DNA of 64,000 nt, from the NCBI RefSeq assembly GCF_006345805.1, contig NC_042997.1:164176001-164240000 (forward strand), written 5' to 3'. The notes under the pieces are model-generated. The model ran no database searches. It was not told the origin of the DNA and saw only the letters and a program-made list of their open reading frames with translations. Below are positions 30,161-42,259 of this stretch, piece after piece; positions within the stretch are counted from its first letter, which is position 1; the number at the start of each line of letters is the position of its first letter. A program made the position numbers and the translations under genes. The stretch is from Octopus sinensis (lineage: Eukaryota).

Positions 30161-31308
30161 TGTTACGGTTTAGCTGGTGCATTTCCCGGTGACCCACATT
30201 GGAATTATGGTTCCGGCATGTCTAGTAGAAAAGTGACAGTCTTTTGTTTAATGGAGGACTAATGGGTTTTGGAATGACCTGTGACCTTGTGCGGGTGAAT
30301 TAGGGGTCGCTCTGGGCACCCCTTGAAGAAGTGAAGAGGAGGACAGATTAAGGGAATCTAAGAGCAGATGGAGAGGGTATTGACAGTAGGAGAGAAGGAC
30401 AGGCAGAGAGTTTGGTAGAGCTGTCATGAGAGAGATAGAGTATAAGACTAAGGGACAGATAGAGAGGCTAAGGGACAGTAGGCGATATAGATAGAGTAAG
30501 GAATCAGATAGCAAATAGAAAGACTATAGGTGGTAGAACAGAGGGAGATGAGGGAGTGGAAGTCAGGACAAGGAAGTGAGGTTCTGGGCAGTCGTTGAGC
30601 GGTCGTCGAAGAACACAGACGGATCTTGCAGTCGCTGGCCGGTCCTCGAGGAAGACAGACGGACCTTGGATTTAAGGAGCAAGCATTGGAATTCTTAGGA
30701 GCAAGTTAGATGCGGAGGCTTGGCGGCACTGATTGGGATATATGCAGATTGGAATATGCACAGGAGGGAATTAGTAGTATTCAGAGGAATTAGCAGTATT
30801 GAGAGGAATGGGACACTGGCAGATTCAATTAGGAATTGAGGTATGTGTTTGTGCATTGATAAGAACAGTCAAGGACTCTGTCGATGTGGTCGATAAAGGA
30901 CATTGTGAAGAAGAAGAGTAAAGGACTTGTTGATTGTGATGTTTAGGAAGAGACTTTAAAGAACTGTTGTCTTGGGACGTGTACTCTTGAATTGTTACAT
31001 GATGTTGTATTATGCTTTGAGTTGTACTCTTGAAATGCTATTGTATTATGTATTGAGTAGTCACGTGCATGCTTTAAATGTATTTGATGTGTAGCAATTG
31101 TAATTGTCATATAAACTGTTGTTTGAATATAAGCCAGTGTCTCTGTTGCCTTGCCTCTCTTTGGGTTGTATCTCAGGTTGTGCCTCTGTATCTCTGTGTT
31201 GAGGTTGTGGCAGTATCTATCTGTATCTCCTCTCTCTGCCTCTTTGGGTTCCGTGGCGAACTAGTGGGCCGTTCGGGGCGGGCGACGACGGGGGATTCCG
31301 CCGTAACA
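30161..31308 (+). repeat. 5' LTR (1148 bp)
   Basis: Terminal inverted repeat TGTTACGG...CCGTAACA, followed after 2 nt by the PBS. Contains internal short tandem duplications. Confidence 0.85.
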
Positions 31309-31310
31309 AC

Positions 31311-31329
31311 TGGTGTCAGAAGTGGGATT
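31311..31329 (+). promoter_or_regulatory. Primer-binding site complementary to the tRNA-Leu 3' end
   Basis: TGGTGTCAGAAGTGGGATT is the reverse complement of ...AATCCCACTTCTGACACCA. Confidence 0.9.
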
Positions 31330-31366: not shown

Positions 31367-33241
31367 ATGGATTTGTCTGGTTGTCAGACCGGAGACGAGG
31401 AGATTTCGCTTGCCCTGATTGTGGAGATGTTAAGGGGCCAGATGGCGCAGACGGACGCGTTCATGGAAAGGATGGACAAGAGGCGACGGGGCCTGTGGGC
31501 AGATCAGCGGGAACTTGAGGTTGCGGATGGGTCAGCTTTGAAGGATCGGTGTTGGACCGAGGATAGCGACGGTCCTGTGGGCAGAGATTGCCCGTCGAAT
31601 GAAGCATCGAGGGAAACAGATAGTGAAGGAAGTGTTGCCGAAATCTGTGATGCTGGACCGGCTGTGTTTGCGGAACCTGGGCTGGTTGCCGAAATTTGTG
31701 ATGCTGTACCCAAGAAATCTTGTGATTTGGAACCCGTAGAGGTTGAAGTAACCAAAAGGCCTGTGGAAGGTGTTATGGCTGATGCTGTTGTTCCGTGTCT
31801 GGAGCCCTTGGCATCTCGACCCCTGTCTCTCGGAGCTCAGGACGAAGAGCTGGCGAGGTCTGGGGTGAATGTCGCTGAATCCGAGGTCCCGGCTCTGTGT
31901 GTGATGGTCGCGGCAGGTGTTGTGCCGTGTGCGAGTCCTTTGGTGTCTGGACCCCTGTCTCTTGGGGCCCAGAGGGACTGTATGGTTCCCACCGTGGAGA
32001 GGCCACAGGCGTGGATGGACTGGCGGCCGAGCGTGTGTGTTGTGAGGCCTGCGGTACGGAAGCTGGTGAGGAAAAGGACCAGGCCCGTTGACGAGGCGAG
32101 ACGGCTGCGAACGGTGGTGGGTCCACCGAGTCCAGGAAGACTGCTTCAGCGTTGGGTGAGCTTTATGGTTGATGGTTGCTTGGGGCCGGTGGAGCCCGAC
32201 AGGCAGTGCCTAGTGAAAGCTCGATTGAGGGTCGGGTGGACCCTAGTGGAAGCAGAAGCTGGTGGAGCGCTGGCTAGGTCAGCCGATCTTTTGGAAGTGG
32301 CACAGGCGATTTGCAGAAGGCAAATCGAGGAATCGTGCCAGATGGCGAACCAGTGGTGGGGCCAGCTCTGCCGATACGGCAACGCAGTTGAAGGAGGTGG
32401 TGGCCCACGGATGCAGTTGAGGAAGCGGTCCGCAAGGAGTCGCTGGTGCTTTGTTGGCACTTGGGGGAGCTCTGTATTTGATGGTTGCGTGGGGCCGGTG
32501 GAGCCCGACATACAGTGCGGAGTAAGAGCTCAATTGAGGGTCGGCTGGACCCTGGTGGAGGCAGAAGCTGACAGAGCGCTGGTTGGGTCGGCCGAGTTAT
32601 TGAAGGCTGCACAGGCAATTTGCAGAGGGCAAATCGTGGAACTGCGCCGGACGGTAAACCAGCGGCGGGGTCAGTTCTGCCGGTGCAGTGATGAAGTTAA
32701 GGGAGATCGTGGTCCGCTGATGCAGTTGCGGAAGAAGCAACCGTTGGTGAAAAGCGCAGGACGTTGGTCGCGAGGGTTGTTGGATGCTGGTCGCACGGAC
32801 CTGGCAGAACGTTTCGTCGACCAAGGCGGTTGTCGCTTGAGGAGGCAGCGAGGCTGGAGGAAGGTCTCAGTACAGCAGCGCAAGAGGAGATATCGGCGAC
32901 AGGTAACAGTGAAAGGACAGAATGGTCCCTGGTTGTCAGCGATAATTGCGCGGAATGGGGATGGTACAGCAAGGTGCTGCGTGGGCTATAGATCCCTGAG
33001 GAAGGTGGCCACTGTGAAGGATTGGCCGGACCCTGCCTGTGGAAGGGATTTGAGGAACTTCCTCGGACGGTGCGCCTATTGTGGGCGGCTAGTAGGAAGC
33101 CTGGTGGCATTGGCGGAGGTGTTACCCAAGCCGCAGAGGGAAGGTGCCAACCTGTGGCTGGTGCTGAAGTGGTGGCTGTGGGAGGTGAGACCCCCGGAGG
33201 AGAAGCCACCCAAGGGGACCTCCAGTTCCTGGAACGTCTGA
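31367..33241 (+). CDS. Intact 624-aa Gypsy-derived ORF lacking catalytic PR/RT/RH/IN cores
   Basis: Open from ATG 31367 to TGA 33241. Pol remnants GRTDLAERFVDQG, GPWLSAIIARNGDGTARCCVGYRSL and KVATVKDWPDP..DLRNFLGRCAYCGRLV. Contains internal repeats. Confidence 0.7.
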   Translation: MDLSGCQTGDEEISLALIVEMLRGQMAQTDAFMERMDKRRRGLWADQRELEVADGSALKDRCWTEDSDGPVGRDCPSNEASRETDSEGSVAEICDAGPAVFAEPGLVAEICDAVPKKSCDLEPVEVEVTKRPVEGVMADAVVPCLEPLASRPLSLGAQDEELARSGVNVAESEVPALCVMVAAGVVPCASPLVSGPLSLGAQRDCMVPTVERPQAWMDWRPSVCVVRPAVRKLVRKRTRPVDEARRLRTVVGPPSPGRLLQRWVSFMVDGCLGPVEPDRQCLVKARLRVGWTLVEAEAGGALARSADLLEVAQAICRRQIEESCQMANQWWGQLCRYGNAVEGGGGPRMQLRKRSARSRWCFVGTWGSSVFDGCVGPVEPDIQCGVRAQLRVGWTLVEAEADRALVGSAELLKAAQAICRGQIVELRRTVNQRRGQFCRCSDEVKGDRGPLMQLRKKQPLVKSAGRWSRGLLDAGRTDLAERFVDQGGCRLRRQRGWRKVSVQQRKRRYRRQVTVKGQNGPWLSAIIARNGDGTARCCVGYRSLRKVATVKDWPDPACGRDLRNFLGRCAYCGRLVGSLVALAEVLPKPQREGANLWLVLKWWLWEVRPPEEKPPKGTSSSWNV

Positions 33242-33349
33242 TGGAGCTCGCCCTTGGAGCTGGGGGTTTGTTATGCTTTGTCGGGTCGACAAAAGCTTAG
33301 GTAGACAACAACTGAAGAATGTGAACAGCCCTTTTTAAATGAGTTTCCA

Positions 33350-37098: not shown

Positions 37099-39288
37099 TG
37101 CAGAGATGCTCAAAATGTCTGGTAGTGTCGGCTATAGCCTAGTCACCCATATAGTTAATCAGGTGATACACAAAGGGGTCATACCCAATGACTGGTGTAG
37201 CAGTATAATAGTCAACTGCTACAAAGGTAAAGGTGATGCCCTAGATACAAATAACTACAGAGGTATCAAGCTGTTGGACCAGGTGATGAAGGTTACGGAG
37301 AGGGTCATAGCCCAACTAATTAGAGAGAGAGTTAGTTTTGAAGAGATGCAGTTTGGGTTTGTGCCAGGGAAAAGTACTACTGATGCTATATTCCTGGTAA
37401 GGCAGCTGCAGGAGAAATGCCTAGCCAAGATAAGCCCCTGTACCTGGCTTTTGTTGACATGGAGAAAGCCTTCGACAGGTCCCCCGATCCCTTATCTGGT
37501 GGGCAATGAGAAAACTAGGGATAGATGAATGGTTAGTGAGAGCTGTGCGGGCCATGTATAGGGACGCCGCTAGTAGGGTGAGGGTTGGAAATGAGTACAG
37601 TGAAGAATTCCGGGTAGAGGTAGGGGTCCACCAAGGCTCAGTACTCAGCCCCCTCCTATTTATCATAGTCCTCCAGGCAATAACGGAGGAATTCAAGACA
37701 GGATGCCCTTGGGAGCCCTCTATGCTGATGACCTTGCTCTAATTGCTGAGTCGCTATCAGAACTGGAGGAGAAGTTTCAGGTGTGGAAACAAGGATTAGA
37801 ATCGAAGGGCCTCAGAGTCAATCTAGCTAAAACCAAAGTCGTAATCAGTAGGAAGGTAGACAAATCACAAACACCTTCAGGTAGATGGCCCTGCTCGATC
37901 TGTAGAAAAGGTGTAGGTAGAAACTCTATAAGATGCACCAAGTGTAAGCTATGGACACATAAGAGATGCAGCAATGTCAAAGGAAGACTAACTAGGAAGA
38001 TGGTTTTTGTATGTGGCAGATGCTCAGGAACAATAAACACTGAAAATGCTCTGAGACCAACTTCCGTCACTTTCCAGGGAGAAAAACTAGAAATAGTTGA
38101 TAGTTTCCATTACCTAGGTGACCAAGTCAGCAGCGGGGGCGGGTGTGCTGAAAGTGTAACTGCTAGAGTAAGAATAGCTTGGGCAAAGTTCAGAGAGCTC
38201 TTACCTCTGCTGGTGACAAAAGGCCTCTCGCACAGAGTGAAAGGCAGACTGTATGATGCGTGTGTACGAACAGCCATGCTACATGGCTGTGAAACATGGC
38301 CGTGACTGCTGAGGATATGCGTAAGCTCGCTAGAAATGAAGCCAGTATGCTCCGATGGATGTGTAATGCCGGTACTCACACTCGGCAGAGTGTAAGTACC
38401 TTGAGAGAAAAGCTGGACCTAAGAAGCATCAGTTGTGGTGTGCAAGAGAGACGTTTGCGCTGGTATGGTCATGTGGCGAGAATGGATGAAGATAGTTGTG
38501 TGAAAAAGTGCCACACCCTAGCGGTTGAGGGAACCTGTGGAAGAGGCAGACCCAGGAAAACCTGGGACGAGGTGGTGAAGCACGACCTTCGAACTTTAGG
38601 TCTCACTGAGGAAATGACTAGAGACCGAGACCTCTGGAAGTGTGCTGTGCGCGAGAAGACCCGGCAGGACAAGTGAGTCCACAACCCGTGGCCTTCTACA
38701 TGGGATGGAGCCAGCCTACGTATGCATACCTATCCTTCTTGGGACACAAAACTCTACTTGTGAAGACGTGTTGAGGCAAGTGAGGATCAGAATCGAAATC
38801 GATCAATGGAAATTGCGGATGTGCTACCAGTGCCGGTGGCATGTCGAAACTCTGCTTGTGAAGACCCATTGAGGCAAGTGAGGATCAGAATCGAAATCGA
38901 TCAATGGAAATCGATCAATGGAAATTGCAGATGTGTTACCAGTGCCGGTGGCATGTAAGAGAACTTTCCGTTTCGCGACCGTTGCCAGCACCGCCCCGTT
39001 TCGTGTCCGTTGCCAGCCTCGCCTGGCCCTCGTGCCGGTGGCACATAAAAAGCACCATCCGTTCGTGGCCGTTTGCCAGCTCTGTCTGGCACCAGTGCGG
39101 GTGGCACGTAAAAAGCACCCACTACACTCACGGAGTGGTTGGCGTTAGGAAGGGCATCCAGCCGTAGAAACACTGCCAGATTTGACTGGGCCTGATGAAG
39201 CCTTCTGGCTTCACAGACCCCAGTAGAACCGTCCAACCCATGCTAGCATGGAAAACGGACGCTAAATGATGATGATGATGATGATGAT
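37097..39288 (+). mobile_element. RTE LINE, 5'-truncated, RT with frameshifts, long 3'UTR, (TGA)n tail
   Basis: IPNDW..YKGKGD..NYRGIKLL, QFGFVPGKSTTDAIF, GVHQGSVLSPLLF, LYADD (YADD at 37721-37732), FHYLG, LRWYGHV, GRPRKTW. Flanked by (TA)n. Confidence 0.96.
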
Positions 39289-40726: not shown

Positions 40727-42259
40727 TCATCATCATCATCATCATCATCATCATCGTTTAACACCTATTTTCCATGCTGGCATGGGGTGGATGGTTTGAC
40801 TGAGGTCAGCCAGCAGCAGCACTCGGCTCTAATCTGATCTGGTAATGTTTCTACAGCTGGATGTCCTTCCTAACGCCAACCACTCTGAGAGTGTAGTAGG
40901 TGCTTTTTACATGTCACTAGCACAGGAGCCAGTCAGGTGGGCCTGGCAGTGATCACGTTTGGATAGTGTTTGGGGTCGATAAATTAAGTACCAGTTACGC
41001 ACTGGGGTCGATGGAATCGACTTAATACCTATGTCTGTCCTTGTTTGTCCCATCTATGTTTAGCCCCTTGTGGGTAATAAAGAAATAGGTACTGGCATCA
41101 GCCACATTTGAATGGTGCTTTTCATGTGTCATCAGCATGGGAGCCAGTCAGGTAGCCCTGGCTCCCATCATATTTCGATGGTGCTTTTTACATGCCACCA
41201 GCACGGGAGCCAGTCAGGTTGATCTGGTATCAACCACATTCAGATGATGCATTTTACATGCCACTGGAATGGGAGCTATTCAGAGGACACTGGCCACAGC
41301 TGCGATTTTGGTTTTACTTGACTCAGCAGATCTTTTCAAGCATATCATATTGCCCGATGCATCAAAGGTACTCTTCAATGGGTTGGACATGCAACACTGG
41401 CATCAGCCACGCTTGTGATCTCACTTTAGATGCCGGGTCTTTTCAATCACAGCATATCTCCAAAGGTTTTGGTCTTCTGTCATTGCATCAGTGAGGCCCA
41501 ATGTTTGAAGGTCATGCTTCACCACCTCATCTCATATCTTTCTGGGTCTACCTCTTCCACAGGTTCCTTCCACAGTTAGGGTGTGGCACTTCCTCACACA
41601 GCTGTCCTCATCCATACGTAACATATGACCATACTAGTGCAGTTGTCTCTCTTGCACCCCACATTTGATGCTTCTTATGTCCAACTCTCTCTCAGGGCAC
41701 TCACACTGTTTTGTTTGCACAGTAACATTACACATCTAGTGGATCATACTAGCTTCATTTCTTTCAAGCCTACACATGTCCTCAGCAGTCATGGCCCATG
41801 TTTCACTGCCATGTAGCATGGTAGTTCACACACATGCATCATACAGTCTACCTTTCATCCTGAGCAAGAGGCCCTTAGTTGCCAGCAGAGGTAGGAGCTC
41901 CCTGAACTTTGCCCAGGCTAATCTTATTGTAGCCACTACACTCTCAGAGCAACCACCTCAACTACAGACTTGGTCACCTAGGTAGCAGAAGCTATCAACA
42001 ACTTCTAGTTTTTACCCCTGGCATATGATGGAATCTGTTTTCTGTATATCTTCAGTATTTATTGCCCCTGTGCATCTGCCACACACAAAAACTATCTTCC
42101 CGGTTAACCTTCCTTTGATATTGCTGCAACTTTTTTGAATCCATAGCTTACACTGGGTACATTGTATGGAGTTTCTACCCACGCCTTTTCTACAGATCAA
42201 GCAGGGCCATCTACCTGAAGAGGTTTGTGATTTGTCAGCCTTCCTACTTACTAAGACTT
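40727..42259 (-). mobile_element. Older RTE LINE copy, interrupted by a SINE
   Basis: (CAT)n tail and 3'UTR repeats. ORF remnant ICRKGVGRNSIQCTQCKLWIQKSCSNIKGRL. Confidence 0.9.
40971..41090 (+). mobile_element. 5'-truncated SINE family B inside the RTE 3'UTR
   Basis: GGGGTCGATAAATTAAGTACCAGTTACGCACTGGGGTCGA..AATAAAGAAATAGG. Confidence 0.85.

Follow-up and report, generated by a model that had tools for sequence, protein, structure and literature searches.

An intact long open reading frame in a repeat family is usually taken as a sign of a functional protein. In the window (the whole stretch of octopus DNA analysed, 64,000 nucleotides), an LTR element contains an uninterrupted 624-aa frame, as established by translation. 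This is the longest among 35 window frames of at least 120 aa; the runner-up has 233 aa. The preliminary description of this locus proposed that the frame is selected for translation and encodes either a novel accessory protein of a non-autonomous Gypsy family or a product of early domestication. The question is what is maintained here, the protein or the frame. As described below, the two are uncoupled in this family, and the uncoupling can be counted.

Composition of the 624-aa frame

The window copy contains the following features (basis in brackets).

30161-31308, + strand: 5′ LTR, TGTTAC...GTAACA, about 1.15 kb (matches both LTRs in sister copies)
31311-31328, + strand: primer-binding site (PBS), complementary to the tRNA-Leu 3′ end (PBS complement in the genome and sister copies)
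31367-33241, + strand: single ORF, 624 aa, gag and pol remnants joined in frame (translation and mapping to the parent)
31367-31520, + strand: Gag N-terminal remnant; predicted helix 13-52, pLDDT 51-69 by blocks (parent mapping and single-sequence model)
31526-31609, + strand: degenerate zinc-knuckle (nucleocapsid) remnant, out of order, metal ligands lost (L032:2736-2817 maps there in intermediates)
31634-31710, + strand: duplication D20 at 51-nt offset (direct repeat, 92%)
31786-32009, + strand: Gag pre-capsid linker, present twice with an offset of 132 nt (direct repeat D17, 76%, and parent mapping)
32065-32734, + strand: protease-RT linker, the 103-aa unit, duplicated at 309-nt offset (direct repeat D10, 79%, and parent mapping)
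32788-32997, + strand: RT entry with the first motif; another residue in place of the conserved DYR-motif Asp (parent mapping and alignment with intact pol)
33001-33094, + strand: RT thumb remnant; in-frame fusion with the first motif through deletion of the RT core (parent mapping and alignment with intact pol)
33095-33241, + strand: integrase-derived scraps, short and in frame (parent mapping)
33299-33304, + strand: polypurine tract, truncated; end of the element, no 3′ LTR (comparison with sister copies)

The PBS complement was found at 56 genomic places, and ARAGORN predicted tRNA-Leu(CAA) at one of the three loci fetched. Matches to the tRNA-Leu 3′ end are densely clustered at G000:C27:6913320-6923298 and C4:90374007-90377272, with a spacing of sometimes only about 110 bases. 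The window copy ends at 33304, within its polypurine tract, and so has lost the 3′ LTR. Elsewhere in the window, a 233-aa frame (37604-38305) encodes the end of an RT and, after it, a PHD-like finger; it is probably a LINE fragment, and it lies in long inverted repeats (38096-38684 and 41413-41999).

Thus, the intact frame behind an LTR and a tRNA-Leu PBS and the three in-frame duplications are present as preliminarily described. The join of the RT first motif to the thumb is also as described: it is in frame and skips about 180 residues, with loss of the YxDD core. The claim that enzymes and a CCHC motif are absent was only partly right. Capsid, protease, RT core with YxDD, RNase H and integrase core are all deleted, as they would not be in an autonomous Ty3/Gypsy element, and no Pfam family matched the ORF protein at E<=10. 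However, the integrase scraps are in frame, and mapping onto L032, a pol-bearing relative, identified the zinc-knuckle remnant as the parent's second zinc knuckle, moved and degenerate.

The ORF descends from a gag-pol of the order PR-RT-RH-IN. Its segments map to L032 at 62-80%, and every part could be assigned to L032 in the original frame: Gag N-terminus, zinc knuckle, pre-capsid linker, protease end, protease-RT linker, RT entry, thumb and two integrase scraps. The pre-capsid linker is joined to the protease end by deletion of the capsid-to-protease stretch. This capsid junction (2057 to 3205 of L032) is present in eight of eight copies, and a Gag (capsid) ORF is not retained. Within the ORF, the second repeat, the RT entry and the thumb can be aligned with an intact database pol. 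The conserved Asp of the DYR motif is present in 112 of 120 pol matches, but 39 of the 40 family matches lack it. By its mapping, the 103-aa unit arose by duplication of the protease-RT linker and is not a new domain. A new fold for this repeat was considered and set aside (the single-sequence model reached a pLDDT of only 36.5). Against the PDB, the ORF protein matched only Ty3 RT, and weakly (E 0.22); the Atlas gave no match. The thumb remnant is about 80% like the parent, as against 62-70% for the other pieces, and has few shared variants; it is a possible RNA signal.

A young family and its relatives

The preliminary description took the element for a member of a non-autonomous Gypsy family. 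In agreement with this, a DNA search of the same genome gave 108 candidate places, 40 of which were scored and yielded 43 matches at 88-97% (window copy excluded), and a search with the RT-remnant peptide gave 102 matches among 121 candidates. The window copy is 96-97% like its dispersed sisters. Complete copies have the layout LTR-2 kb-LTR, about 4.3 kb (4.1-4.5 kb), with the TG...CA ends, PBS, polypurine tract and short target duplication of Ty3/Gypsy LTR elements (the window copy being without its 3′ LTR). We delimited 33 copies by PBS and polypurine tract, and 18 of them were resolved at both LTR ends. In these 18, the LTR pairs differ by a median of 0.62% (range 0-1.3%); 15 carry a 4-bp target duplication, which is ATAT in 14. 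Several tandem copies have a common LTR (L010/L012, L016/L020, L028/L030, L007/L147 and L024/L133). Thus, the family is a young non-autonomous Ty3/Gypsy LTR retrotransposon, which has recently multiplied without enzymes of its own.

Many copies are open, as the preliminary description anticipated: among the 30 best copies, 13 have an ATG frame of at least 580 aa. The 103-aa repeat is present once, twice or three times. One-repeat copies are not all older, since some nest within the young clade as collapses. The open copies do not share one C-terminus: their stops range from 151 nt ahead of the tract region to 18 nt within it. Pieces of the ORF occur in automated gene models of two octopus species; in one model (P0002), the first 150 aa of the ORF are fused to RING-like and death domains, which may be a mis-annotation or an exonisation. 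Caution is required because ORFs of this kind find their way into annotations as hypothetical proteins.

The peptide search also turned up relatives that carry pol and the same PBS (L032 and L033; L034-L036 are partial), and all are broken; L032 and L033 carry RVT_1 and integrase Pfam matches. A tree of 36 copies, based on the linker-RT stretch, forms a ladder: pol-bearing elements come first, then intermediates with more and more deletions, and finally the young family. The summed branches of the ladder amount to about 0.59 changes per site; the tree is midpoint-rooted and the direction of the ladder is inferred from nested losses. The young family has diverged from the parent by about 35%, its LTRs no longer match the parent LTRs, and G content rises from 0.32 to 0.39 along the lineage. 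A-to-I editing was considered as the cause of the G gain and is not supported: along the branch to the derivative, A>G changes outnumber G>A changes by a factor of only about 1.6-2, those of the types T>G and C>G become more frequent too, and there is no clear neighbour-context pattern. In the intermediates L038, L039, L043, L045 and L050, the 5′ coding part is 73-81% and the 3′ part 84-89% like L032. The alignments suggest repeated recombination with helper RNA or faster upstream change, and the ladder may be partly a mosaic.

Scoring of 150 RT candidates and 150 integrase candidates revealed no intact element of the parent lineage. Intact Gypsy families are present in the genome, with another PBS and other LTR ends. 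At least three are young (L071-L077 and L091-L130), with pol frames of 1,050-1,120 aa and LTR pairs up to 100% alike. As helpers, these families are disfavoured by their different PBS and LTR ends and by their varied target duplications. The ATAT duplication of the young copies is also found at pol-bearing and intermediate relatives, and this sequence likeness suggests that parent-lineage integrase inserted the young copies. One sequencing run (X4) contains a gapless 1,311-base piece across the parent RT core, with 167 differences from L032. In four runs from four studies, presumed to be RNA (their status is guessed), the LTR and ORF are covered and most unique flank bins are empty, which is a hint that the family is transcribed. 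The segment 28842-29163 of the window has very high depth in all four of these runs; it is an abundant repeat, probably a SINE.

Stops, indels and amino-acid changes

To define variants, we used 55 of 58 copies; three copies below 88% identity were dropped, and seven tandem or duplicate pairs were merged. Shared variants are those common to independent copies, and the expected numbers of stops were computed from the observed mutation spectrum and neighbour context. In the 55 copies, there is one shared stop against 14.8 expected (P 6e-6) and there are 16 private stops against 27.5 expected. Beyond codon 50, one shared stop is present where about 13 are expected. The five other frames have no stop deficit among shared variants (35 copies, four mutation models).

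Indels behave in the same manner. Among shared indels of at least 4 nt, 13 of 14 in the ORF are multiples of three, as compared with 26 of 88 in the LTR (Fisher P 9e-6); the figure is two of 14 in the leader and tail, and 13 of 26 for private indels of this size in the ORF. When shared ORF indels of any size are counted, only 16 of 34 are multiples of three; this is due to 17 one-base events, each found in a pair of copies that are mostly rich in errors. Private one-base indels are likewise concentrated, 48 of 90 lying in four copies, and many of the one-base indels are probably assembly errors. One copy (L017) carries a compensated +1/-1 pair. Of the junctions common to at least two copies, 10 of 11 keep the gag/pol frame (P 1.3e-4; two overlapping descriptions were merged and a junction beyond the pol stop was left out), and three of seven single-copy junctions are in frame. 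Microhomologies that lie in frame, such as VKD/VKD where the RT pieces join, may make frame-keeping deletions more likely. The exceptional junction, near the 3′ end, enters another frame, which is open past the polypurine tract in three of four copies. Thus, selection for translation and the bias toward multiples of three, both expected by the preliminary description, are borne out.

Amino acids, by the same counting, are nearly free to change. The dN/dS of shared variants is 0.81 (0.68-0.98; 55 copies) and that of private variants 0.92; for all variants it is 0.88 (0.79-0.98), slightly but significantly below 1. A codon model on 15 naturally open ORFs gave 0.80. In three intact Gypsy pol families from the same genome (24, 11 and 17 copies, chosen by us from the candidate list), the shared dN/dS was 0.08, 0.22 and 0.37; therefore, the method detects protein constraint where it is present. 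Differences between derivative and parent are flat by codon position (73/73/76, and 49/56/55 at 24% divergence), and pol-bearing relatives show a third-position excess (40/32/57, P 0.023). On the deep branch, a test of amino-acid identity was powerless: controls also gave z of about 1, and frame +3 shows a mild stop deficit there. Between copies, LTRs differ 2-4 times as much as the ORF, with 22-59 gaps per comparison, and because of this an RNA-level constraint on synonymous sites could inflate dN/dS.

The preliminary description had set a dN/dS near 1 against its proposal and open frames with in-phase indels in its favour, and these signs occur together. This combination points to selection for the act of translation: since stops and frameshifts are purged while shared dN/dS is 0.81, it is mainly the open frame, not the protein sequence, that is selected.

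Explanations and known systems

We consider it reasonably probable that the family, a non-autonomous derivative of a Ty3/Gypsy element produced by deletions, maintains an open ORF between the PBS and the polypurine tract, with near-neutral amino acids, because translation over the whole length is needed for RNA stability and hand-over to a helper Gag-Pol. The grounds are the ancestry of the pieces, the in-frame junctions, the purge of stops and frameshifts on shared lineages, the near-neutral amino acids and the recent insertion at ATAT duplications. In the simplest reading, selection would act in cis on the passage of ribosomes. With an early stop, a long tail of the RNA would go untranslated, which might expose the RNA to nonsense-mediated decay; alternatively, such a stop might remove the RNA from the translating pool where Gag recruits genomes. 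Ribosome transit may also bring the RNA to sites of particle assembly. The enzymes would be supplied in trans by an intact member of the parent lineage, absent from this assembly, and a weak tether in cis may be contributed by the Gag N-terminal helix, which has been retained.

A role of the ORF protein itself, for example as a tether through its Gag N-terminus, is possible but doubtful. Some protein constraint remains, because overall dN/dS is below 1 and is lower in the Gag N-terminus (shared variants, 0.55; 0.31-0.99) and the pre-capsid duplication (all variants, 0.65; 0.47-0.89). The Gag N-terminus provides the best-scoring helix of the predicted model, the C-terminal 169 aa are basic (36 K+R against 13 D+E), and a disordered protein could tolerate substitutions. 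However, a tether at the N-terminus alone does not require the purge of stops after codon 50. Moreover, the C-terminus and repeat number vary, regional dN/dS intervals mostly include 1, and the structural model is of low confidence and built from a single sequence.

We regard as very unlikely the two proposals of the preliminary description, a novel trans-acting accessory protein (such as a counter-silencing factor) and early host domestication, although the ORF is long and probably transcribed, and although its pieces appear in the gene models mentioned above. A product acting in trans is not subject to copy-by-copy selection, and ordinary protein-level selection does not accord with a dN/dS of 0.80-0.88, the lack of a conserved C-terminus and one to three repeats; all pieces trace to gag and pol remnants. 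A domesticated Gypsy gene is a single locus under purifying selection, whereas this ORF is multi-copy with dN/dS of about 0.8; the window copy is an ordinary truncated family member, and the constraint lies on variants common to mobile copies. Least probable of all is that there is no selection and the frame is open because the copies are young, as the small LTR-pair differences indicate, and because mutation toward G seldom creates stops: the expected stops already include spectrum and context, other frames gain stops as expected, and composition cannot account for junctions and indels that stay in phase across about 0.59 changes per site.

Returning to translation in cis, we lean, with somewhat less confidence, toward a wider proposal. 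A retrotransposon parasite in the germline would have kept a meaningless 600-codon "ribosome runway" through about 10 rearrangements and about 0.6 substitutions per site, and at its end would even have passed into a frame that had never been coding. It would thus be a long-term natural record of selection for translation without a protein, and it would have outlived nearly all copies of its helper. Because open and stop-bearing copies exist in one genome, the family offers a natural test of whether LTR-element RNA needs translation in cis for copying.

In the literature (Repbase and Dfam were outside the search), we found no account of this family or of such a pattern of dN/dS versus stops in a Gypsy element. 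The family is not a TR-GAG, not autonomous and not domesticated. TR-GAG, TRIM and LARD elements are described as having the same enzyme-less layout, LTR-PBS-internal-PPT-LTR, and as being mobilised in trans, often by an untraceable partner (PMC13570524, PMC10886601). As described there, TR-GAG keeps a Gag ORF, whereas the octopus family has no capsid and one frame across the whole internal region; TRIM and LARD, in contrast to this single spanning frame, are described as non-coding or as carrying patchy remnants. In yeast, helpers are reported to mobilise deleted mini-Ty1 elements, and up to 5 kb can be deleted with little effect (PMC4974528, PMC3945221); Ty1 RNA is reported to be captured during translation, and minimal translation was suggested to stabilise it (PMC3945221). 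Unlike in the octopus family, a full-length open frame is not described as required in the cited parts of these reports.

By analogy, the closest precedents appear to be mouse IAP I-delta-1 and coronavirus defective RNAs. In IAP I-delta-1 (Saito et al. 2008), an internal deletion is reported to fuse gag and pol in frame; the product is reported to be helpful in cis, Gag and Pol are needed in trans, and new insertions outnumber those of the helper (PMC7411935, PMC6466679, PMC7060167, PMC10924933). The octopus family is likewise a non-autonomous LTR element with an in-frame gag-pol fusion. However, IAP I-delta-1 is described as a betaretrovirus-like element with one 1.9-kb deletion, whereas the octopus family is Ty3/Gypsy with about 10 junctions, no capsid or other folded domain, about 35% divergence from its parent and near-neutral amino acids. 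What is known of the octopus family is its evolutionary signature, and an effect of translation in cis would apply to it by analogy. For defective interfering RNAs of mouse hepatitis virus (van der Most et al. 1995), propagation is reported to need a long in-frame chimeric ORF, of which the translation matters and not the encoded sequence (PMC8255065). Those RNAs are parasites of a laboratory-passaged RNA virus, whereas the octopus family is a germline retrotransposon with a long natural record. The octopus family would thus be an extreme new variation on cis-translated derivatives, and an idea known for a mouse element and for defective RNAs of viruses is extended to a Ty3/Gypsy lineage of an invertebrate.
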